Source of the DNA: a virus
Taxonomy: Duplodnaviria; Heunggongvirae; Uroviricota; Caudoviricetes
Virus record (IMG/VR): IMGVR_UViG_2778261645_000001
Reading direction: 5' to 3' (one strand)
Length of the DNA: 6,252 nt
Part shown: one piece after another, positions 1 through 6,252 of the stretch
How the letters are laid out: each line of letters starts with the position of its first letter
Numbering within the stretch: position 1 is the stretch's first letter
Notes under the pieces: generated by a model
The model's input: the letters and a program-made list of their open reading frames with translations, nothing else
Database searches by the model: none
Told to the model about the DNA's origin: nothing
Made by a program: the position numbers and the translations under genes

Positions 1-60
1 GATGATCTGGCAGCCTGAGTTCACAGATAAAACACTCTCCAGGAAACCCGGGGCGGTTCA
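1..60 (+). mobile_element. Right terminus (IRR) of an IS3-family insertion sequence, IS629/IS1203/IS3411-like; the body of the element lies upstream of the window
   Basis: Positions 36-60 (ctccaggaaacccggggcggttca) are the imperfect inverted complement of 6193-6216 (tgaaccgccccggaaatcctggag) at the other end of the window. Ends in the TG...CA dinucleotides typical of IS3-family ends. Matches my recollection of the IS629 right end. GC content is visibly higher than in the flanking cargo. Confidence 0.75.
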
Positions 61-1259
61 GTTAGTGAGTTGTTCCAAGTATTCTTTAAGTTCCCTAACA
101 TCGTCTGCGTAGAGTCCTGAATAGCTTTCCAGCCACCTCTGGAATTAATCTGTGAACCAAGTTCTTTAGCAAACTTAGGGAGTGCATCAGAGGCTTTAAC
201 ATCACCATTTTTCATCTTATCGAAAAGCTGTTTTTCAGTCAGACCTAAAGCCTTTGCAAATGCCTGAGTAGCACCCGGTAAAGCTTCAGATAGTTGCCCC
301 TTAAGCTCTTCAGCCATCACCTGACCCTTAGAAGCCATCTGCGATACTGCGGTTAATGCTCTTTGAATCTGCTCATCTGAACGACCCATTAAACGGGCAT
401 ATCCAGTTAAGTTTTTAAATAATTCCTCTGAGCCTTCAAGACCCATCGTATTTTTTGCAGATGCACCAAATGAAGCAAACTGTGCTTGTGTTTCGGTTGT
501 GTCCATACCAGTAATTTGAGTTAAATCTTGAATGAACTTTTTGACCTGTGTACTTTGGTCACCGAATACGAAATCAATACTTCTTTCCGATGATGCACGT
601 TGAAGGCCAACTTCCATAATCTTCTGATAACTGGCTAATACAGCCTGCATTGAGATAAATGCACCTGCTGTTTTGACTGCTGCCGAAGACAGGTTATCAA
701 GGCTGCTAGCTGCTCTGTCACCATTAATGCTGGTGGATGTATGACCTCTGGCTTTAGCAATTGCTTCTCGTACACTTGAATTTAGTTTAGCAAGGGCTTC
801 ATTAAACTTGGTGTTATCCATCTGACCAGCTTTACTACTTAATGCGTAAAACTGGCTCTTAATGTATTTCTCGACAATTGGGTTAAGACCTTTCAGCTTG
901 GTCATATTAGCTGAATAAGCTGCTGTGATTGCTCTGTTGCCGCTAATTCGTGGCTGTCTCGGTTGTTTTGGAGGATTAATCGCATCATTAACCTGACTTG
1001 TGAAACGGAAAGCTTTAGTATTTTTTGCTCTAGCTTCCAGACGGTCAAAGGTCTTATTAATTTTCCCTTCCATTGACTTCAAAGAACTTGTCAGATTACT
1101 GTCAAGTTGCTTGGTATCGACCTTAAACGCTCTATTCAAATTCCGTTCAATTCTTTGTGCTGATTGCAAAGCTGCCTTTTCAACTCTTTGCAAGCCCTTA
1201 ACAACGTTCTCGCTGAAGCCTAGCTCAACGATAAAACTATCAACTTTAAACTGTGCCAT
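21..1259 (-). CDS. Phage tail tape measure domain protein, N-terminal ~399 codons only; 3' end interrupted by the IS terminus (likely pseudogene or truncated gene)
   Basis: 412-aa ORF with ATG at 1259 and a Shine-Dalgarno-like AGAGGTGA about 11 nt upstream. The segment GLEGSEELFKNLTGYARLMGRSDEQIQRALTAVSQMASKGQVMAEELKGQLSEALPGATQAFAKALGLTEKQLFDKMKNGDVKASDALPKFAKELG resembles the conserved tape-measure domain (TIGR02675/TP901-type core). The last 12 residues (EPPRVSWRVFYL, plus the stop) are translated from IS terminal sequence (21-59), so the native frame is cut at position 60/61. True tape measure proteins are usually much longer than 400 aa. Confidence 0.6.
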   Translation of the reverse strand: MAQFKVDSFIVELGFSENVVKGLQRVEKAALQSAQRIERNLNRAFKVDTKQLDSNLTSSLKSMEGKINKTFDRLEARAKNTKAFRFTSQVNDAINPPKQPRQPRISGNRAITAAYSANMTKLKGLNPIVEKYIKSQFYALSSKAGQMDNTKFNEALAKLNSSVREAIAKARGHTSTSINGDRAASSLDNLSSAAVKTAGAFISMQAVLASYQKIMEVGLQRASSERSIDFVFGDQSTQVKKFIQDLTQITGMDTTETQAQFASFGASAKNTMGLEGSEELFKNLTGYARLMGRSDEQIQRALTAVSQMASKGQVMAEELKGQLSEALPGATQAFAKALGLTEKQLFDKMKNGDVKASDALPKFAKELGSQINSRGGWKAIQDSTQTMLGNLKNTWNNSLTEPPRVSWRVFYL

Positions 1260-1350
1260 TGTTCATATTTCACCTCTTTAAGCGTGAGCTACGTAAAAAA
1301 TAATTTTTGGTGTAGGTATTAGCTTTACAGATTTCACGTAGCACACATAC

Positions 1351-1393
1351 AAAAAAGGAGAGTTACCTAGATTGCCATCCAGATAATCTCTCC
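1351..1393 (-). terminator. Candidate rho-independent terminator downstream of the 71-aa gene
   Basis: On the minus strand: GGAGAG (revcomp of 1388-1393), a 25-nt loop, CTCTCC (revcomp of 1357-1362), then TTTTTT (revcomp of 1351-1356). The stem is short and the loop long, so this is weak to moderate. Confidence 0.3.
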
Positions 1394-1426
1394 CGTTGAT
1401 TTTACCCAACCAATTCTATTCTCAAA

Positions 1427-1642
1427 TTAATGGTAAACGTAAGAATACATCCCATCATCACCTAAAATCTGTGCGTCACATGGTAATTTATCTAAGCACC
1501 ATGAAGGAATCCTTCTAACCTTTGGTTTGTGTGAGGTGATAACTCGATGTTGATTTCCAATTCGTAGCTTTGGTTTGGCTTGTAACTTTAAGTTTTCACA
1601 AGCCGACTTAATAGTTTCATAACGCTGTTGCAAATCAATCAT
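1427..1642 (-). CDS. Hypothetical small basic protein (71 aa)
   Basis: ORF track gives 1427..1648 with a GTG start. The ATG two codons in (1642-1640) is preceded by GAGGTG about 4-5 nt upstream, so I prefer it. It sits directly downstream of the 235-aa gene. No recognisable motif. Confidence 0.55.
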   Translation of the reverse strand: MIDLQQRYETIKSACENLKLQAKPKLRIGNQHRVITSHKPKVRRIPSWCLDKLPCDAQILGDDGMYSYVYH

Positions 1643-1658
1643 TCTCACCTCACTTAAA

Positions 1659-2366
1659 TTAAATCACTTTGCTGTATTTCTGAGGAACCTTCAGTAGCTG
1701 TTCAATGTCACCTTGCAGGGCAACCTTTTTCTGTGCCTCGTATTCGGCTATCAAAGATTTCATGCTATCAAGTTCTTTTTTAAGCTTTTGCTTTAACTTA
1801 TCCAGTTTACCGGAATAATGCTTAGTCAAATTAGCTTCAGCTAACTGAAGAATCTCTTCATCTGTTTTATCACTCATCAGAATAAATTGACCAGAACCCC
1901 TTAATGCTTGTCTGACATCAATTAACCGGAACCCTTCAGGGATACTTTGAAGAACTTTAGGAACGTCTTCAATCGCTGTACCAAAACCATCATTAAAGTT
2001 TCCTTCATAATAGATAAATGGGTTTGACTTAATCTCGTAAGCAATATCATATTCTGAAGGTTTCGAGGTTTCTTCGAAGTTCTTAACATTGTCGTAAGCA
2101 ATATCAAGTCGAATACGCTGTTCTTTTAACTGTGGGTAATATTCACGCTCAAGATTAAATAGTGCTTCACCCTTGCAGATATCTGGCATTTCTTGAGGCT
2201 CAGGAGACACAAAGGTAATTTGCTTCGGTGACATTCGGATTTCTTGCTCAAGTGCAATTCTTTCATCATGTTCTTTACGCTGAATAGTGATAGCTGGATG
2301 TTCAGTCTGTGGCGACCAGTCACCGAAGCTATCAACCTTTCTACCGCTAATATATAGATTTTCCAT
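1659..2366 (-). CDS. Hypothetical protein (235 aa from the preferred ATG), charged, with a Lys/Glu-rich probably helical C-terminus
   Basis: ORF track gives 1659..2411 with a GTG start. The internal ATG at 2366-2364 (MENLYISGRK...) is preceded by GAAGAGGAAAA about 5-8 nt upstream. Long uninterrupted frame. The nested 61-aa and 81-aa ORFs in other frames are treated as artefacts. Confidence 0.7.
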   Translation of the reverse strand: MENLYISGRKVDSFGDWSPQTEHPAITIQRKEHDERIALEQEIRMSPKQITFVSPEPQEMPDICKGEALFNLEREYYPQLKEQRIRLDIAYDNVKNFEETSKPSEYDIAYEIKSNPFIYYEGNFNDGFGTAIEDVPKVLQSIPEGFRLIDVRQALRGSGQFILMSDKTDEEILQLAEANLTKHYSGKLDKLKQKLKKELDSMKSLIAEYEAQKKVALQGDIEQLLKVPQKYSKVI

Positions 2367-2573
2367 TTCATTTTCCTCTTCTAAGTAATACTCAGTTTTT
2401 AAAAAGCACACCTGACATCCTACAAACTTAGAAGAGGCTTAAAAGGCGTTTGCCAAGTATGCTTTTTAAAAGCTGAAAAAGCCCTAGATAACTAAAACGC
2501 TATAAAGGGCTAAGGTGAAGAAATTAAAACATCTAAAGGATTCAATAACGAATGAACAAGAGTACTTTTCGAG

Positions 2574-2602
2574 ATGACCTCTCAGGTTATATAAGAGGTC
2601 AT
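2574..2602. repeat. Perfect 9-bp inverted repeat ATGACCTCT-N11-AGAGGTCAT in the 435-bp gap
   Basis: Arms at 2574-2582 and 2594-2602 are exact reverse complements. No flanking T-run on either strand, so it is more likely a protein-binding palindrome or RNA hairpin than an intrinsic terminator. Confidence 0.4.
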
Positions 2603-2846
2603 GTAGCGAAAAGCATTGCACCTTTCAGAATGTTCGGTATAGAACATACCTCACCAACTCAGAATATCCATCCATCCATCTGATTATTGAAAGAAATATA
2701 AGAGAGAATTACTCTCCCATAATTAAAATTATGTCATGCTTAAGGTTATTTGTCAACAACTTTTTAACAGATTGGTAACATTTATACTTTAATAGATGCA
2801 CCTGCAATCATACCAATCAATACAAAACAGATAATCACCAATTCCA

Positions 2847-3176
2847 TTAATGCACCACCTTCGAATCCGTCACCAAAATATTGTCAGCGTACAAAATTGC
2901 TATAGCTGCCTTGAGATATCTTTCAGGGCTAATGCTGTATTTGTTCGTTTGCTCGATAACCAATCTTTTCATGTTGCTGTCTTTAATTGGTAGCATCATT
3001 CGAGGCTCGTTAAACTCCACCGAGTGAATAAAGTCAGAGATGTTTTCTGCATTATCAGCCATCAAAGCTAACAGCCTGTCAAAGTCAATGCTAATACCTG
3101 CATCAATGAAGCTTTGCACCATCATAGCAGTGTCGGTATCAATAAAAATCTGTAGTGGGAAGTTTAATTCTCTCAT
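2847..3176 (-). CDS. Hypothetical acidic protein (109 aa)
   Basis: ATG at 3176-3174 with a strong Shine-Dalgarno AAGGAG about 9 nt upstream (minus-strand context AAAAGGAGATTTTAAGAAATG). Clean ORF. No recognisable domain. Confidence 0.7.
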   Translation of the reverse strand: MRELNFPLQIFIDTDTAMMVQSFIDAGISIDFDRLLALMADNAENISDFIHSVEFNEPRMMLPIKDSNMKRLVIEQTNKYSISPERYLKAAIAILYADNILVTDSKVVH

Positions 3177-3197
3177 TTCTTAAAATCTCCTTTTTAC

Positions 3198-3318
3198 CAG
3201 ACCTCCTCAATCGCTCTGTAACGAGCTAAACAGTCTTTTTCAGGGGTAGCCTGTAGGGGTGTGCCACATACCCTAAAATAAGATAGTTTTTTGCGTTAGA
3301 ATGCGATTGAGAGCGTCT
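3198..3318. repeat. Copy 1 of a two-copy ~100-120 bp element with conserved inverted termini (repeat A)
   Basis: Shares a ~46-bp left block (cagacctcYtcaatcgctctgtaacgagYtaaac...cagg) and a ~30-bp right block (ttttttgYgtYagaatgcgattgagagcgtct) with 5125-5222; the centre differs. The outer 16 bp of the two blocks are imperfect inverted complements (13 of 16). It lies in the 169-bp spacer between the 69-aa and 109-aa genes. Confidence 0.6.
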
Positions 3319-3345
3319 GAGAGTGGGTAAAACCGTTTTTTGCCT

Positions 3346-3555
3346 TTAGTCTGAGACTATTAACCCCATCTCACTATGAAATTGACTAAACCAGCTTTTT
3401 GTTACTGAGGTTTTTAGTGTGAAAGATGGGGATTGCATAATCAGATAGATGCCATCATTATCAATGTCGCCCCATCCACTATGTACATCAATTAGATTTC
3501 GAAAATATTTAAAGGCTTTGTCTGTTTTAAGTTTGAGGGTGAATACTTTCTTCAT
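3346..3555 (-). CDS. Hypothetical protein (69 aa)
   Basis: ORF track gives 3346..3567 with a TTG start. The ATG at 3555-3553 has GGGGGAAAGA immediately upstream and forms an ATGA start/stop overlap with the upstream 76-aa gene, indicating translational coupling. Confidence 0.55.
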   Translation of the reverse strand: MKKVFTLKLKTDKAFKYFRNLIDVHSGWGDIDNDGIYLIMQSPSFTLKTSVTKSWFSQFHSEMGLIVSD

Positions 3556-3782
3556 TCTTTCCCCCAATTCTTAATGAGTTCATAGGCCCGTTTAAATTGA
3601 GTCGGGTCACTATAATCAAGCTCGATATCCAGTGACTTTAATTCATAGCGTAACTGCTCAATTTGATGTGGCTTTAGTCTTTTCTTGTTACGGTCAAGCG
3701 TAACATCTTCATATTCTTTTGAGCGGGTATCTTGCCTGATTAGATGTGATGCCAGTCTATAAAATTTGTATCTACATAGCAT
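3552..3782 (-). CDS. Hypothetical small basic protein (76 aa)
   Basis: ORF track gives 3552..3815 with a TTG start. The ATG at 3782-3780 is preceded by a consensus Shine-Dalgarno AGGAGG with a 5-nt spacer, and overlaps the stop of the upstream gene by one base (TAATG). Confidence 0.65.
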   Translation of the reverse strand: MLCRYKFYRLASHLIRQDTRSKEYEDVTLDRNKKRLKPHQIEQLRYELKSLDIELDYSDPTQFKRAYELIKNWGKE

Positions 3783-4054
3783 TAAACCTCCTGTAGCAAA
3801 TTGTTTGGGTGGCAATTTCTCTTATTACCATCCCTGAAGATAATCTTTTTAGTTGCCTGAACTTCATGATGCAAAAACCAGATGACATACTTCACATAAT
3901 AATCACGAGTGCCATAACGAATCATTGGATTACCGTAAGCATCATCTCTTGTCTTAACCTCTCCGCCATCAATCCATTCAAGCATTCCTGTTTCGTAATT
4001 AATCATGAAGTAAGTTGCAAAGAACCGTTTAATATCATCTCGCCATTGCTTCAT
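3782..4054 (-). CDS. Small HNH_3-like (phage HNH endonuclease-like) protein, 90 aa, possibly catalytically degenerate
   Basis: ATG at 4054-4052 with GGAGGT about 7 nt upstream. The C-terminal stretch YYVKYVIWFLHHEV...IIFRDGNKRNCHPNNL resembles the HNH_3 signature (h-H-x-D-G-N-K-x-N-N-x-x-x-N-L), but Arg replaces the His that normally precedes DGN. The protein ends right after NNL. Confidence 0.45.
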   Translation of the reverse strand: MKQWRDDIKRFFATYFMINYETGMLEWIDGGEVKTRDDAYGNPMIRYGTRDYYVKYVIWFLHHEVQATKKIIFRDGNKRNCHPNNLLQEV

Positions 4055-4056
4055 AA

Positions 4057-4335
4057 TCAGACCTCCAGAGACAGCTTGCGAATCTTGATGCTCAATAGAC
4101 GGGCAATATCAATTTTAAAGCTGTTAAGTCCCTTCAAAGTATCTAAAGCGTCCTGAGTAATTCGGATGTGTTTACGACCTTTAGAAACTGGATATTTAAG
4201 TAAATCCGACTCAGTGACCTCTTTAGCAATTGCAAGCTGCATAACAGTCTGATGAGGCAAGCTACTAGCTCGTTTAATTCTGGTAAGCTCGTTAAAAGCT
4301 TCCTCTGAAATACGGGTTAATGTGTGTTTATTCAT
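4057..4335 (-). CDS. Putative ribbon-helix-helix (Arc/CopG-like) DNA-binding protein, 92 aa
   Basis: ATG at 4335-4333 directly abuts the stop of the upstream gene (TAAATG), with AGAGGAA about 7 nt upstream. The N-terminus HTLTRISEEAFNELTRIKRASSLPHQTVMQLAIAK fits a beta-strand, helix, helix RHH pattern. Assignment is by pattern only. Confidence 0.4.
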   Translation of the reverse strand: MNKHTLTRISEEAFNELTRIKRASSLPHQTVMQLAIAKEVTESDLLKYPVSKGRKHIRITQDALDTLKGLNSFKIDIARLLSIKIRKLSLEV

Positions 4336-4893
4336 TTAAAATTCCTCTGTAACTAAATACGGGTCAAACTCGAAATCTGGTTGCTCGTTTTCCATTGGCT
4401 CAATATTCCCAACGGCAATATGATGTTCAACAATACCAATTAGCTTTGCACACATTACAGCAAGCAATGCACAATAGGCATCGGTTGGTAATTCGTAGCT
4501 AAGTCTGGTTGCTTGTCGCTGAAGATGATTTGTCACGGTAGCTGAGTTAATTTCATCAAGGTTCTTTAGAAGATAAAATAGTTTTTTGTTGTATTTCGGG
4601 TGGCCTTCACTTCTACAGAATCCAATGAAAATATCATCAAGCTTACTTGGTAGTTGCTCGTAGCTGTCGAAGTTAGCCAAATAATTTTTGATGCTGTTCT
4701 TTGTTGTTTTGCGTACTGACATATAACGACTCCTCGGTGTAATTGCCCGAATTACTTCGTCAATGCCTTTGCGTTCTGCTCTGGTGAATTTGGGTACTTC
4801 GTGGCTGGTGGGGGAGTTTGTGTAAGCGTAGGAGTTGTGCTTGTTGCGTTCTCTCGATGCCTGAAGCATCGCTCTAAATTCTCTGTCGTTCAT
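4336..4893 (-). CDS. Hypothetical protein (185 aa), promoter-proximal first gene of the small-gene operon
   Basis: ATG at 4893-4891 with AAGGA about 12 nt upstream. It sits about 45 bp downstream of the -10 of a near-consensus promoter. Acidic C-terminal tail (ENEQPDFEFDPYLVTEEF). No domain recognised. Confidence 0.7.
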   Translation of the reverse strand: MNDREFRAMLQASRERNKHNSYAYTNSPTSHEVPKFTRAERKGIDEVIRAITPRSRYMSVRKTTKNSIKNYLANFDSYEQLPSKLDDIFIGFCRSEGHPKYNKKLFYLLKNLDEINSATVTNHLQRQATRLSYELPTDAYCALLAVMCAKLIGIVEHHIAVGNIEPMENEQPDFEFDPYLVTEEF

Positions 4894-4942
4894 TCATAAG
4901 CCAGTCCTTATAATTGTTAATTCTCTGTTAACCATATATACA

Positions 4943-4971
4943 ATACTAGCAGTTTCAAAGACTAATGTCAA
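4943..4971 (-). promoter_or_regulatory. Near-consensus sigma70 promoter for the leftward small-gene operon
   Basis: On the minus strand: -35 TTGACA (revcomp of 4966-4971), a 17-bp spacer, -10 TAGTAT (revcomp of 4943-4948). Correctly placed upstream of the 185-aa gene start at 4893. Confidence 0.6.
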
Positions 4972-4978
4972 GCATTTT

Positions 4979-5008
4979 TTAACATTTCATTAACATCTGT
5001 GGTATAAT
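4979..5008 (+). promoter_or_regulatory. Rightward promoter with extended -10, divergent from the operon promoter
   Basis: -35 TTAACA (4979-4984), an 18-bp spacer, extended -10 TGgTATAAT (5000-5008). Back to back with the leftward promoter; the two -35 elements are 7 bp apart. Confidence 0.5.
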
Positions 5009-5124
5009 GGTTCTATGGGGAGAGTAAAATATAAAGGCGTGGCTATGAGGTTTATTCGATAGGGGTTGGTACAAGCCCAACTAACCGAATCAACTATGTA
5101 TGTCACATGGTATTGCATTGCACA

Positions 5125-5222
5125 CAGACCTCTTCAATCGCTCTGTAACGAGTTAAACGGCCTCTTCAGGTCAACTCATAAGGTCAGGTACTTTTTTGTG
5201 TCAGAATGCGATTGAGAGCGTC
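5125..5222. repeat. Copy 2 of repeat A
   Basis: Same conserved left and right blocks as 3198-3318, with a shorter, divergent centre. Lies about 115 bp downstream of the rightward promoter; its right block ends about 5 nt before the AGGA ribosome-binding site of the 5238 ORF. Confidence 0.6.
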
Positions 5223-5237
5223 TTACAAGGAAAACTA

Positions 5238-5414
5238 ATGGTAAATCTCCCTCCTGAACTGGGGTCACCTGATGTATGGGCTGGTGGAGGTATTGGCCTT
5301 ATTTCAGGTCTGCTGCTTCGTTACGTCCTTGTCAGAGTGCTTGTTGTCTTTAAACTGTTCGGTCGTACATGGACGCTTGACCTTAAGGATAATGACCACA
5401 CAGACCCCCGCTAA
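5238..5414 (+). CDS. Candidate small hydrophobic (single-transmembrane) peptide, 58 aa
   Basis: ATG at 5238 preceded by AGGA with a 7-nt spacer. Product MVNLPPELGSPDVWAGGGIGLISGLLLRYVLVRVLVVFKLFGRTWTLDLKDNDHTDPR has one hydrophobic segment of about 23 residues. ORF track reports it as 5196..5414 from a TTG start. Local GC is higher than the surrounding cargo. A weak CCCC/GGGG hairpin (5429-5452) follows the stop. Confidence 0.3.
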   Translation: MVNLPPELGSPDVWAGGGIGLISGLLLRYVLVRVLVVFKLFGRTWTLDLKDNDHTDPR

Positions 5415-5489
5415 ACCCCCTCCAAAACCCCCTGTACGAGATGGTATAGGGGCATCTTTAGCATTTTGTGCTATCTATTAAAAAATAGC

Positions 5490-5519
5490 TTGACAGAACC
5501 GGAAAGCTGTATCTATCAA
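5490..5519 (+). promoter_or_regulatory. Possible promoter reading into the tandem-repeat region
   Basis: TTGACA (5490-5495), an 18-bp spacer, TATCAA (5514-5519). The -35 is consensus but the -10 is weak, and there is no obvious downstream gene. Confidence 0.25.
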
Positions 5520-5534
5520 GCACTCACCTCTCTG

Positions 5535-5724
5535 ACAGTAATTTCTAAAAGTTCTTATTTTTCAATAAGTTGTAATTAGCCATATATAGAGAACTGACAA
5601 GTCTCTTCACAGAGAACTCTGTAACCTTAACAGTAATTTCTAAAAATGCTTATTTTTCAATAAGTTGTAATCACCCAATATAATAGCTGTTCAGCTTCTT
5701 CACAGGGAAACTTCAGAGGCCTTC
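5535..5724. repeat. Two tandem ~95-bp direct repeats (repeat B), each with a CTTATT-N4-AATAAG hairpin
   Basis: Units start at 5535 and 5630. The first 42 bp are 40/42 identical (acagtaatttctaaaaNtNcttatttttcaataagttgtaat); the remainder is recognisably related but diverged. Embedded inverted repeats at 5554-5569 and 5649-5664. Unit 2 contains a perfect TATAAT at 5679-5684. Confidence 0.65.
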
Positions 5725-5985
5725 TTAACCGCCCCACTAATCGGGAGAAGAGCGATAACCACAGAGAGGGAAGCTCCTTTCTTAACCGACTTCTTAAACA
5801 ATCTTTACAGACCCCGTTCACCAGTCTCAATATTTTATTTCTCGCTCTTCGTTTGTTGCTCGTTTCTATTATTGAGGGGGTTTGAAAAACCTCTGTAAAA
5901 TAACCCTTCCAGTAAAAAGCGAATAACCCCAGAAAGGGGAATCGCCTCTTTAACATTCTCGTAATCAGCACTCTATATGAGAATC

Positions 5986-6192
5986 TTAGCTCAACCTTTG
6001 AACAATCTTGTAAGTGGTGCTTAGAGGCATTCTTAGCGATTCTGCGATGCTCTTGATGGGTTGCCCTTGGTCATACATTTTAATCAACCTGTCAAGCGTC
6101 TGTGCATCGTGTATATGAGGTCTTCCACGTAAACCACCCCTATTAACCACGGCAAGTAAAAGCATTGTGTCACCACAATAGATTGTCTGGGT
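5986..6192 (-). pseudogene. 3' fragment (68 codons plus stop) of a small serine recombinase (resolvase/invertase family), truncated at the IS boundary
   Basis: The minus-strand frame open from 6192 to the stop at 5988-5986 translates to TQTIYCGDTMLLLAVVNRGGLRGRPHIHDAQTLDRLIKMYDQGQPIKSIAESLRMPLSTTYKIVQRLS. The GRP followed by ...G-x-x-I-x-x-I-A-x-x-L-x-x-x-x-S/T-T-x-Y-K pattern matches the C-terminal HTH of resolvases such as gamma-delta, Hin and Gin. The catalytic N-terminal part would have lain where the IS now sits. Not in the ORF track because it has no in-window start. Confidence 0.55.
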
Positions 6193-6252
6193 TGAACCGC
6201 CCCGGAAATCCTGGAGACTAAACTCCCTGAGAAAGAGGTAAACAGGATGACT
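6193..6252 (+). mobile_element. Left terminus (IRL) of a second IS629-like element, including the orfA ribosome-binding site and start codon (ATG 6247-6249)
   Basis: TGAACCGCCCCGGAAATCCTGGAGACTAAACTCCCTGAGAAAGAGGTAAACAGGATGACT matches my recollection of the IS629 left end and orfA start (MT...), with one or two differences. It is the inverted complement of 36-60. Same orientation as the copy at the window start. Confidence 0.75.

Follow-up and report, generated by a model that had tools for sequence, protein, structure and literature searches.

The stretch of DNA analyzed here, 6252 bp in length and referred to as the window, is the complete contig NLXC01000068.1 of the draft Escherichia coli assembly GCA_002512105.1. 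It begins and ends inside the insertion sequence (IS) IS629/IS1203 of the IS3 family, and the 6.1 kb in between are the middle part of a common chromosomal island of approximately 11.4 kb. An earlier interpretation of the bare letters (the sequence-only reading) had described a low-GC, phage-like segment bracketed by two directly oriented IS copies. This IS-bracketed segment is real at the sequence level, ordinary in kind and was partly misread; contigs ending in IS stubs and IS629 copies striking mobile DNA are everyday in E. coli draft genomes.

Positions 1-60 of the window were 100% identical (60/60) to positions 82007-82066 of NZ_AP018488.1 and positions 6193-6252 were 100% identical (60/60) to positions 80757-80816, both on the plus strand. 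The two matches represent the two ends of a single annotated 1310-bp copy of an 'IS3-like element IS1203 family' (NZ_AP018488.1 80757-82066). The tips of the stubs read TG...CA, and imperfect 25-nt terminal inverted repeats with 88% complementarity are present at positions 36-60 and 6193-6217. The identity of both 60-mers on the same strand bears out the proposal of directly oriented IS629-like ends: the window ends are IS629/IS1203 termini in direct orientation. The transposase of IS629 is encoded on the strand opposite to most of the genes lying between the stubs, and its orfA start codon is presumably located at position 6247. Only 120 nt of the element are present in the window, and its transposase genes (orfA/orfB), the site of the programmed -1 frameshift and the target duplications lie outside. 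The equal length of both stubs looks like the overlap of a de Bruijn assembler into a collapsed repeat, the contig having stopped 60 nt inside IS629 on each side because the assembler could not resolve the repeat. Since the window is the whole contig, the stubs mark points where the assembly broke off, and what lies beyond each IS is not visible. Of the earlier claim of two IS copies, the two direct junctions are real, and the number of two copies is inferred from the location of these junctions at the contig ends. Strains bearing IS629 often harbor multiple copies, with a median of 2-3 matching places per genome and up to 50.

The homology of the window to intact islands reaches exactly to the IS tips on both sides, and positions 58-6192 were colinear with the interior of the intact islands of strains E47 and PRO_A-1401. 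At the left junction, the intact sequence ...GAAAATATCC/GTTAGTGAG (...ATATCC/GTTAGTGAG; the slash marks the junction point) compares with IS...GGTTCA/GTTAGTGAG in the window. At the right junction, the intact sequence ...ATTGTCTGGGT/AACTTCAAC (...GTCTGGGT/AACTTCAAC) compares with ...ATTGTCTGGGT/TGAACCGCC. The left IS cuts a tape measure gene after codon 399 of approximately 710, and the truncation noticed in the sequence-only reading was confirmed, as the 399 N-terminal residues that are left matched PF20155 (2.8e-17), phrog_4036 (3.4e-67) and TIGR02675. In intact relatives the tape measure proteins comprise 710-726 aa, and the gene of the window is colinear with its E47 counterpart from E47 locus position 15004. 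Together with the gene position, these profile matches identify the product of 61-1259 as a tape measure protein.

The right IS cuts a gene encoding a fusion of a Dam methyltransferase and an HTH_7 domain before codon 155 of 222. The remaining fragment (5986-6192, 68 codons) shared 97% and 95.5% identity with the C-terminal part (residues 155-222) of proteins of 222 aa composed of Dam (PF05869) and HTH_7; with the HTH of the islands' own small serine recombinases the identity was only 28% (E 0.05). It had previously been taken for a serine recombinase; the assignment of the HTH_7 domain was correct, but the parent gene deduced from it was wrong, as the full-length homologues consist of Dam and HTH_7 and not of a resolvase domain (PF00239).

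No complete E. coli genome shares these junctions; the best whole-window matches were approximately 90% identical and ended at positions 58-61 and 6192. The junction-specific products, a 412-aa fusion of tape measure and IS and a 59-aa HTH fragment, were found in no other contig of a 153-billion-gene index. An exact-match lookup of three window proteins, including both junction-specific ones, returned this contig alone. A search with the full tape measure protein yielded full-length proteins only among the 120 matches listed, one of them from strain E24377A, and no C-terminal fragment traceable to the same assembly was obtained.

The base composition of the enclosed segment was in agreement with the AT-rich, foreign and phage-related character that had been ascribed to it. 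Positions 61-6192 have a GC content of 39.2%, compared to 51.7% for the IS stubs and 49.0% for the E. coli flanks of a relative; the intact island and the Escherichia phage mistaenkt both have 40.0%. The segment is 71% coding, all genes except one are located on the minus strand, and open reading frame (ORF)-free spaces of 480, 344 and 571 nt are present. Scans of the window with Rfam (E up to 1) and for tRNA/tmRNA and tandem repeats gave no result. All features are listed in Table 1.

Table 1. Features of the 6252-bp window (strand given as + or -; a point indicates no assigned strand).
Feature	Position	Strand	Remarks
IS629/IS1203 right end, last 60 nt	1-60	+	100% identity; terminal repeat 36-60 ends ...GGTTCA
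Tape measure gene, 5' part, codons 1-399	61-1259	-	PF20155, phrog_4036, TIGR02675; reading frame continues for 13 codons in the IS, with its stop at 21
Conserved leader of ~75-85 nt directly upstream of the tape measure start	1260-1346	-	Inverted repeat GCTACGTGAAA...TTTTTTACGTAGC
71-aa ORF just upstream of the tape measure gene, at the position of a tail assembly chaperone	1427-1642	-	Called gene in the contig record
235-aa island-specific protein, NCBI label 'transposase'	1659-2366	-	Label unsupported
ORF-free space, 480 nt	2367-2846	-	Sigma-70-like site and hairpin
109-aa ORF	2847-3176	-	90%-identity cluster contains this exact sequence only
Module A, non-coding hairpin of ~121 nt	3198-3318	.	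Repeats D3, D4
Two small overlapping ORFs, 69 aa (3346-3555) and 76 aa (3552-3782)	3346-3782	-	Gene calls of the contig record; variable part of the island
HNH endonuclease, 90 aa	3782-4054	-	PF13392 7.6e-5 (below gathering score), phrog_959; HNH annotation in relatives
92-aa ORF	4057-4335	-	Weak VAPB_antitox match, E 0.08
185-aa island-specific protein, first gene of a long minus-strand operon	4336-4893	-	No family or PDB match
Divergent promoter-like region, followed by module B	4894-5237	.	Predicted sites at 4971-4943 (-) and 4979-5008 (+); module B ~5125-5232
58-aa ORF with one hydrophobic helix, sole plus-strand gene	5238-5414	+	Conserved in E47 (locus 19933-20109)
ORF-free space, 571 nt	5415-5985	.	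Tandem ~95-nt duplication; 90.9% identical to E47, conserved like coding parts
Dam methyltransferase-HTH_7 fusion gene, 3' fragment, codons 155-222	5986-6192	-	HTH_7 2.5e-6; homology to intact genes ends exactly at 6192
IS629/IS1203 left end, first 60 nt	6193-6252	+	100% identity; terminal repeat 6193-6217

The intact island family and its tail genes

The interior of the window matched 472 of 5426 complete E. coli genomes (approximately 9%) at 554 places, all of them chromosomal and at most three per genome, with 80-95% identity and mosaic coverage. In E47 the island is located between tonB and yciI. Its first part encodes a 506-aa large serine recombinase (Resolvase, Recombinase and zinc ribbon domains), a 256-aa Dit-like 'baseplate' protein and a 710-aa tape measure protein, which are followed by a 67-aa ORF, the 235-aa 'transposase', small ORFs and an HNH endonuclease. 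The end of the island is formed by ORFs of 93 and 185 aa, the 222-aa Dam methyltransferase with its C-terminal HTH_7 and 1.7 kb without ORFs. In C236-04A, PRO_A-1401 and PK8241 the island is inserted between wrbA and ymdF. In these three strains and in CE0026f, the large serine recombinases differ and the far end often encodes a small resolvase. Dam-HTH and/or a small resolvase are encoded by the intact islands. Taken together, the same compact architecture (11.4-11.8 kb in the copies, approximately 11-12 kb as a layout) was found at at least three integration sites, and no capsid, portal, terminase, sheath or tube gene was annotated or detected in the intact copies examined. In CE0026f the island splits yecE (DUF72) into two annotated pseudogene halves (locus 3066-3543 and 15344-15691), which clearly illustrates how a serine recombinase integrates the island within a coding sequence and adds a third attachment site.

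Homologues of the 185-aa and 235-aa proteins were named in Shigella sonnei, S. flexneri, S. dysenteriae, Salmonella enterica, E. fergusonii and E. albertii. Of two scans of species-representative genomes, the first gave no match and the second yielded E. albertii only. Other copies of the island were also found to be hit by IS elements. An IS3-family element different from IS629 is located in the tube-initiator gene of C236-04A (locus 10130-11340) and adjoins the recombinase in PK8241 (locus 3872-5085), and IS21-family elements (ISEc12, IS100) were seen in three other strains. Decay by IS elements thus recurs among these islands.

The complete island was further obtained as a stand-alone contig of approximately 11.4 kb in ten sequencing runs (Logan SRR33945263_23840, 11,474 bp), the 11,474-bp contig having only ~20-100 nt of GC-rich flank. 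Many contigs of ~11.4 kb encode island proteins. A circular episome was considered as the source and rejected, as the one contig of this size that was examined has no terminal overlap; it looks like a branch of the assembly graph between strains with and without the island. Four matches in IMG/VR lie on contigs of 22-26 kb, which exceed the island in length, and were left out of account with regard to packaging.

Two proteins connect the island to the Felix-O1-like phages (Ounavirinae), which are strictly lytic myophages with genomes of approximately 86-90 kb. The full-length Dit-like protein (tube initiator) of the intact island shared 70.5% identity with gp92 of mistaenkt, a phage of the genus Suspvirus (Ounavirinae) in which the gp92 gene is located directly downstream of the tape measure gene. 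Homologues of the tube initiator were detected in 299 phage records, 253 of them with 60-80% identity, and the listed best matches and the tally of organisms were Felix-O1-like (Ounavirinae-type). Residues 1-498 of the tape measure protein were 30% identical to the tape measures of Ounavirinae; within this part, residues 1-72 showed 57% identity and nucleotides 1047-1200 of the window approximately 75-82% identity, while the C-terminal ~210 residues were unrelated. The phage tape measure comprises 746 aa, compared with 710-726 aa in the islands, from which slightly shorter tails would be predicted. In intact relatives the tape measure gene is followed by the Dit-like gene, which is the same order as in Ounavirinae. 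In the structure of the Felixounavirus Bas63, the tube initiator gp18 is one of the hub proteins located beside the tape measure (gp17; PMC12609058). We equate the Dit-like protein of the island with Bas63 gp18 by its position directly after the tape measure gene and not by direct comparison. The tape measure and the tube initiator are the only clearly phage-derived proteins of the island and both point to Ounavirinae; no other island protein matched the mistaenkt genome.

The presence of tail genes, an HNH endonuclease, a Dam methylase and an integrase would also be expected of a decaying remnant of an ordinary prophage. Such an origin of the island family is improbable, given that the compact layout recurs at at least three sites with different large serine recombinases and that related sequence is present in 472 genomes. 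Furthermore, the tail genes derive from strictly lytic phages, the structural and packaging genes named above were not detected, and tblastn against 50,697 phage records gave no match for the 235-aa or the 185-aa protein.

Origin of the IS629 junctions

The colinearity of the window with the interior of intact islands, together with the truncation of an island gene at each junction, is in line with a resident island that received two separate IS629 insertions, and independent insertions have a somewhat better than even probability. Two copy-out-paste-in events would have inactivated the island, and its missing parts would be located on other contigs. One side would comprise the 3' part of the tape measure gene together with the genes of the tail-tube initiator and the large serine recombinase, and the other side the methyltransferase N-terminus and the long ORF-free region. 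For independent insertions, 3-bp duplications of GTT (left copy) and GGT (right copy), or their 4-bp equivalents, are predicted, and the corresponding outer junctions would read ...ATATCCGTT/TGAACCGCC (also ...GAAAATATCCGTT/TGAACCGCC) and GGTTCA/GGTAACTTCAAC. As a whole, the contig is best explained as the central 6.1 kb of a resident satellite-like island that was inactivated by two IS629 insertions, an explanation that we regard as fairly likely.

What weighs against this explanation is that the far sides of the IS lie beyond the window, so that its sequence fits two simple insertions, an IS-mediated deletion of the outer parts and a translocation alike. The sequence-only reading had likewise stated that the window alone cannot separate independent insertions from a rearrangement, and we agree. 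An IS629-mediated rearrangement, by adjacent deletion, inversion or recombination between IS copies, would have left the outer parts of the island lost or elsewhere. In two reports, IS629 is described as abundant and active across many E. coli lineages, where it disrupts and deletes DNA, and as a cause of deletions and small structural polymorphisms in genomes of enterohaemorrhagic E. coli (PMC9943667, PMC3271280). Relatives of the window contain other IS hits and partial islands, which would also suit a rearrangement. Nothing in the window opposes it, as the perfectly colinear and clean inner sides are compatible with either scenario, and we consider it unlikely, though a serious alternative to independent insertions.

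A segment flanked by direct IS629 ends could in principle also be a composite transposon or translocatable unit, in which two IS629 copies captured 6.1 kb of phage-like DNA that became mobile or excisable as a circle, and the sequence-only reading had presented it as cargo of such a composite unit. Recombination between direct repeats can delete or circularize the DNA between them; for the present segment, such a deletion is a generic possibility only. The cargo interpretation did not hold, since the segment is the colinear interior of an older ~11.4-kb island, both junctions lie inside this island, and the island is intact elsewhere at attachment sites of serine recombinases. Both junctions truncate island genes, as is predicted for insertion into a resident island and not for capture. 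The junction-specific products are confined to this contig, and thus there is no sign that an IS-bracketed unit ever moved. IS3-family elements transpose as single-IS circles, long composites are inefficient, and composites of this family are uncommon. The arrangement shares with classical IS-bounded composite transposons the same IS on both sides of a segment; unlike in these, the segment is a piece of another mobile element, both end genes are cut and there is no second occurrence. Taken together, a composite transposon is very improbable.

It was further considered that a single IS copy accounts for both junctions, either in a 7.4-kb circle of IS629 and the enclosed segment or in a tandem array. 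The contig runs from the IS right end to the IS left end in the same orientation and therefore closes on paper, and a de Bruijn assembler would give the same contig from a circle or a tandem. However, no replication function was recognized in the segment (Pfam, PHROG, PADLOC, NCBIfam), such circles are transient, and a collapsed multi-copy repeat explains the graph more simply, as IS629 is often multi-copy. We give this explanation hardly any credence, and the two insertions into a resident island remain the preferred reading of the junctions.

Non-coding elements and island-specific proteins

The two phage-derived genes are preceded by a common leader. The leader found upstream of the tape measure gene in the window (Table 1) is present upstream of the tape measure gene in PRO_A-1401 as well, and it also stands before the gene of the tube initiator in E47, PRO_A-1401 and C236-04A (E47 locus 13968-14055; PRO_A-1401 6699-6772; C236-04A 12001-12074). 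This distribution suggests that the leader may be a shared control element for both genes. A strong predicted sigma-70-like site (TTGACA-17-CATAAT) is located on the minus strand at positions 2756-2728 and is followed by a hairpin (2721-2697). This site, the best of its kind in the window, is overlapped by the 18-mer ATTTGTCAACAACTTTTT (2748-2765), which is identical to positions 78457-78474 of mistaenkt in a divergent promoter region of the phage (chance expectation ~0.02).

Outside the window, the intact islands contain an ORF-free region of 0.9-1.8 kb (E47 locus 21335-23050; PRO_A-1401 12594-14368; C236-04A 19127-20043). In all three islands the 10-mers of this region are shared preferentially with the right end of the mistaenkt record, an ORF-free stretch of 1.26 kb that contains arrays of TTAACAG/CTAACAAG-like motifs. 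Counting of the motif TTAACAR was weakly informative and was replaced by a ranking of shared 10-mers, in which the mistaenkt right end ranked first of the phage windows scanned (47 vs 9.4±5.3, 31 vs 9.5±4.3 and 42 vs 3.9±4.3), corresponding to an excess of approximately 5 to 9 standard deviations above the mean for the three islands. From these shared words, the ORF-free region of the island may mimic a cis-acting site of the phage, for instance an origin, a site for packaging or an array of promoters.

Two hairpin modules of approximately 100-125 nt with 16-nt inverted ends (AGACCTCYTCAATCGC ... GCGATTGAGAGCGTCT) were identified in the window, module A (3198-3318) and module B (5125-5232). 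Both strands of module A fold equally well, with z-scores of -5.1 and -5.9 for the two strands. Module B is a discrete insertion of ~100 nt, and the same site lacks the module in E47 and PRO_A-1401. The module was present in 319 of 5426 genomes, unannotated, approximately once per genome and never on plasmids, and is apparently confined to islands of this family, a statement for which the contexts were not checked individually. A retron, a miniature inverted-repeat transposable element and a riboswitch were rejected as candidates, as there was no Rfam match and the module is apparently island-only and not dispersed. The module could act as a regulatory RNA or as a site bound by a protein, or it could be a mobile mini-cassette. 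Close to the right end, a unit of ~95 nt is tandemly duplicated (5535-5629 and 5630-5724) with a 48-nt core of 92% identity; the duplication is kept in E47 and PRO_A-1401 and represents a candidate iteron or operator array. Back-to-back promoter-like sites (4943-5008) between the gene of the 185-aa protein and the plus-strand gene of the 58-aa protein resemble a small genetic switch.

No island-specific protein has a supported family assignment (Pfam, PHROG, PADLOC, NCBIfam). For the 235-aa protein, there was no match in Pfam, PHROG, NCBIfam or PDB, a weak PADLOC match only (PDC-M63B, E 2.2e-4) and no tblastn match in the 50,697 phage records. Its family is tiny, with 19 clusters at 50% identity among 1.84 billion representatives, and an AlphaFold2 model from a shallow alignment (mean predicted local distance difference test score, pLDDT, 59.6) predicts a helical protein that ends in a C-terminal coiled coil. 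RefSeq names this family 'transposase' in those related genomes that were examined; we discarded the name, as no profile library, structure database or phage genome supports it. Two annotations are thus to be corrected, namely this unsupported 'transposase' and the HTH_7 fragment, which belongs to the methyltransferase fusion. The 185-aa protein had no match in Pfam, PHROG, PADLOC, NCBIfam or PDB and no tblastn match in the same phage records, and its 1072 homologues occur in E. coli, Shigella, Salmonella, E. fergusonii and E. albertii (AlphaFold2 with a shallow alignment, pLDDT 43.9).

Among the smaller genes, the 71-aa ORF upstream of the tape measure gene had no match in Pfam or PHROG. It was tried as a tail assembly chaperone, and this assignment was rejected for want of a BLASTP alignment to gp94 or gp95 of mistaenkt, a comparison that does not exclude remote homology. 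The N-terminal sequence of the 92-aa ORF points to a protein that is possibly a ribbon-helix-helix-like DNA binder. The region of the two small overlapping ORFs is replaced by unrelated genes in E47.

Relationship to phage satellites

The combination of features described above resembles that of the PLEs of Vibrio cholerae, elements similar to phage-inducible chromosomal islands. PLEs encode a tape measure protein, a chaperone and a baseplate hub protein, which replace the phage proteins in chimeric tails (PMC12987554), and PLE-like elements contain a large serine recombinase, an HNH nuclease and ORF-free spaces with an origin and a small RNA, one of them being littered with IS elements (PMC9410903). 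The intact relatives of the window, though not the window itself, are likewise compact islands with a large serine recombinase and without capsid, portal, terminase, sheath or tube genes. Like the PLEs, which are satellites of the lytic myophage ICP1, the island combines integration by a large serine recombinase and a compact size with a lytic myophage as the related phage. It has its own tape measure and tube initiator, homologous to the tail-core proteins of the phage, as PLEs have a tape measure and a baseplate/tube-start protein homologous to those of the phage, which in PLE11 replace the phage proteins (PMC12987554). An HNH nuclease gene, large ORF-free spaces and, among PLE-like relatives, an IS-degraded element (PMC9410903) are shared as well. 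In the island the ORF-free spaces bear repeats and share k-mers with the ORF-free end of the phage, and no initiator protein was recognized.

The island also differs from PLEs. Its hosts are Escherichia, Shigella and Salmonella and its phage group is Ounavirinae, and the two are likened by features and not by the sequence of PLE proteins. The tube initiator of the island is 70% identical to that of the phage, compared with 20-41% for PLE; no RepA, chaperone or capsid-remodelling gene was recognized in the island. We therefore do not file it as a PLE, and plausibly it works like one, either through chimeric tails or through decoys that interfere with the assembly of tails.

Other known systems share fewer of these features. 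Phage-inducible chromosomal islands (PICIs), capsid-forming PICIs (cf-PICIs) and P4-like elements are small integrated islands of Enterobacteria that exploit phages, and some cf-PICIs carry putative tape measure genes according to a figure legend (PMC12987554, Extended Data Fig. 10 legend). Their characteristic tyrosine integrase, AlpA, regulators of the Psu/Delta/Sid type and primase-replicase were not found in the window or its relatives. Unlike in these elements, capsid, terminase small-subunit or redirecting genes were not detected in the island, and its related phage is lytic and not temperate. The EPIPs of Mycolicibacterium combine a serine integrase with a tape measure gene in a small element without most tail genes (PMC12822802), but their helper is a prophage and the host phylum is unrelated. 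Blockers of tail assembly (Tai, a virion-assembly inhibitor (PMC10884400) and Rta of PLE11) would lead to the same outcome if the island proteins act as decoys (PMC11364771, PMC12987554); unlike the island proteins, they are single small proteins that bind phage tail parts and are not homologues of tail proteins. In PADLOC, no family matched the window proteins convincingly.

Based on this comparison, we tentatively propose, at a probability somewhat short of even, that the island represents an undescribed family of satellites or satellite-like defence elements of Escherichia, Shigella and Salmonella that exploits Ounavirinae and would be the enterobacterial counterpart of PLEs. Its own tape measure and tube initiator would serve for chimeric or poisoned tails, its ORF-free arrays would mimic cis-regions of the phage, and the copy in the window would have been killed by two IS629 insertions. 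The island integrates via its large serine recombinase and, by analogy with the PLEs, probably parasitizes or blocks Felix-O1-like phages by substituting its own tail-core proteins. No description of the island family, of a satellite of Ounavirinae or Felix-O1 phages, or of a tape-measure-encoding E. coli island was found in the literature, the search having covered open-access papers, in which absence is not proof. Several observations weigh against the proposal. No replication initiator, packaging gene or chaperone homologue was recognized by Pfam, PHROG or BLASTP, and the 11,474-bp stand-alone contig has no circular overlap of its termini. The structure models of the two largest unknown proteins (235 and 185 aa) are too poor for use, and the k-mer resemblance to the ORF-free end of the phage lies outside the window.

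Taken together, these comparisons of sequence and gene order suggest that the island belongs to a common and apparently undescribed family that is PLE-like and linked to Felix-O1-like phages. Two tail-core genes of these phages, which are widely used for typing, biocontrol and therapy, have near copies in the island. If the island indeed behaves like a PLE, it would be a natural factor of resistance against, or parasitism of, Felix-O1-like phages, and would provide a tractable E. coli model for satellite tape measures and chimeric tails.

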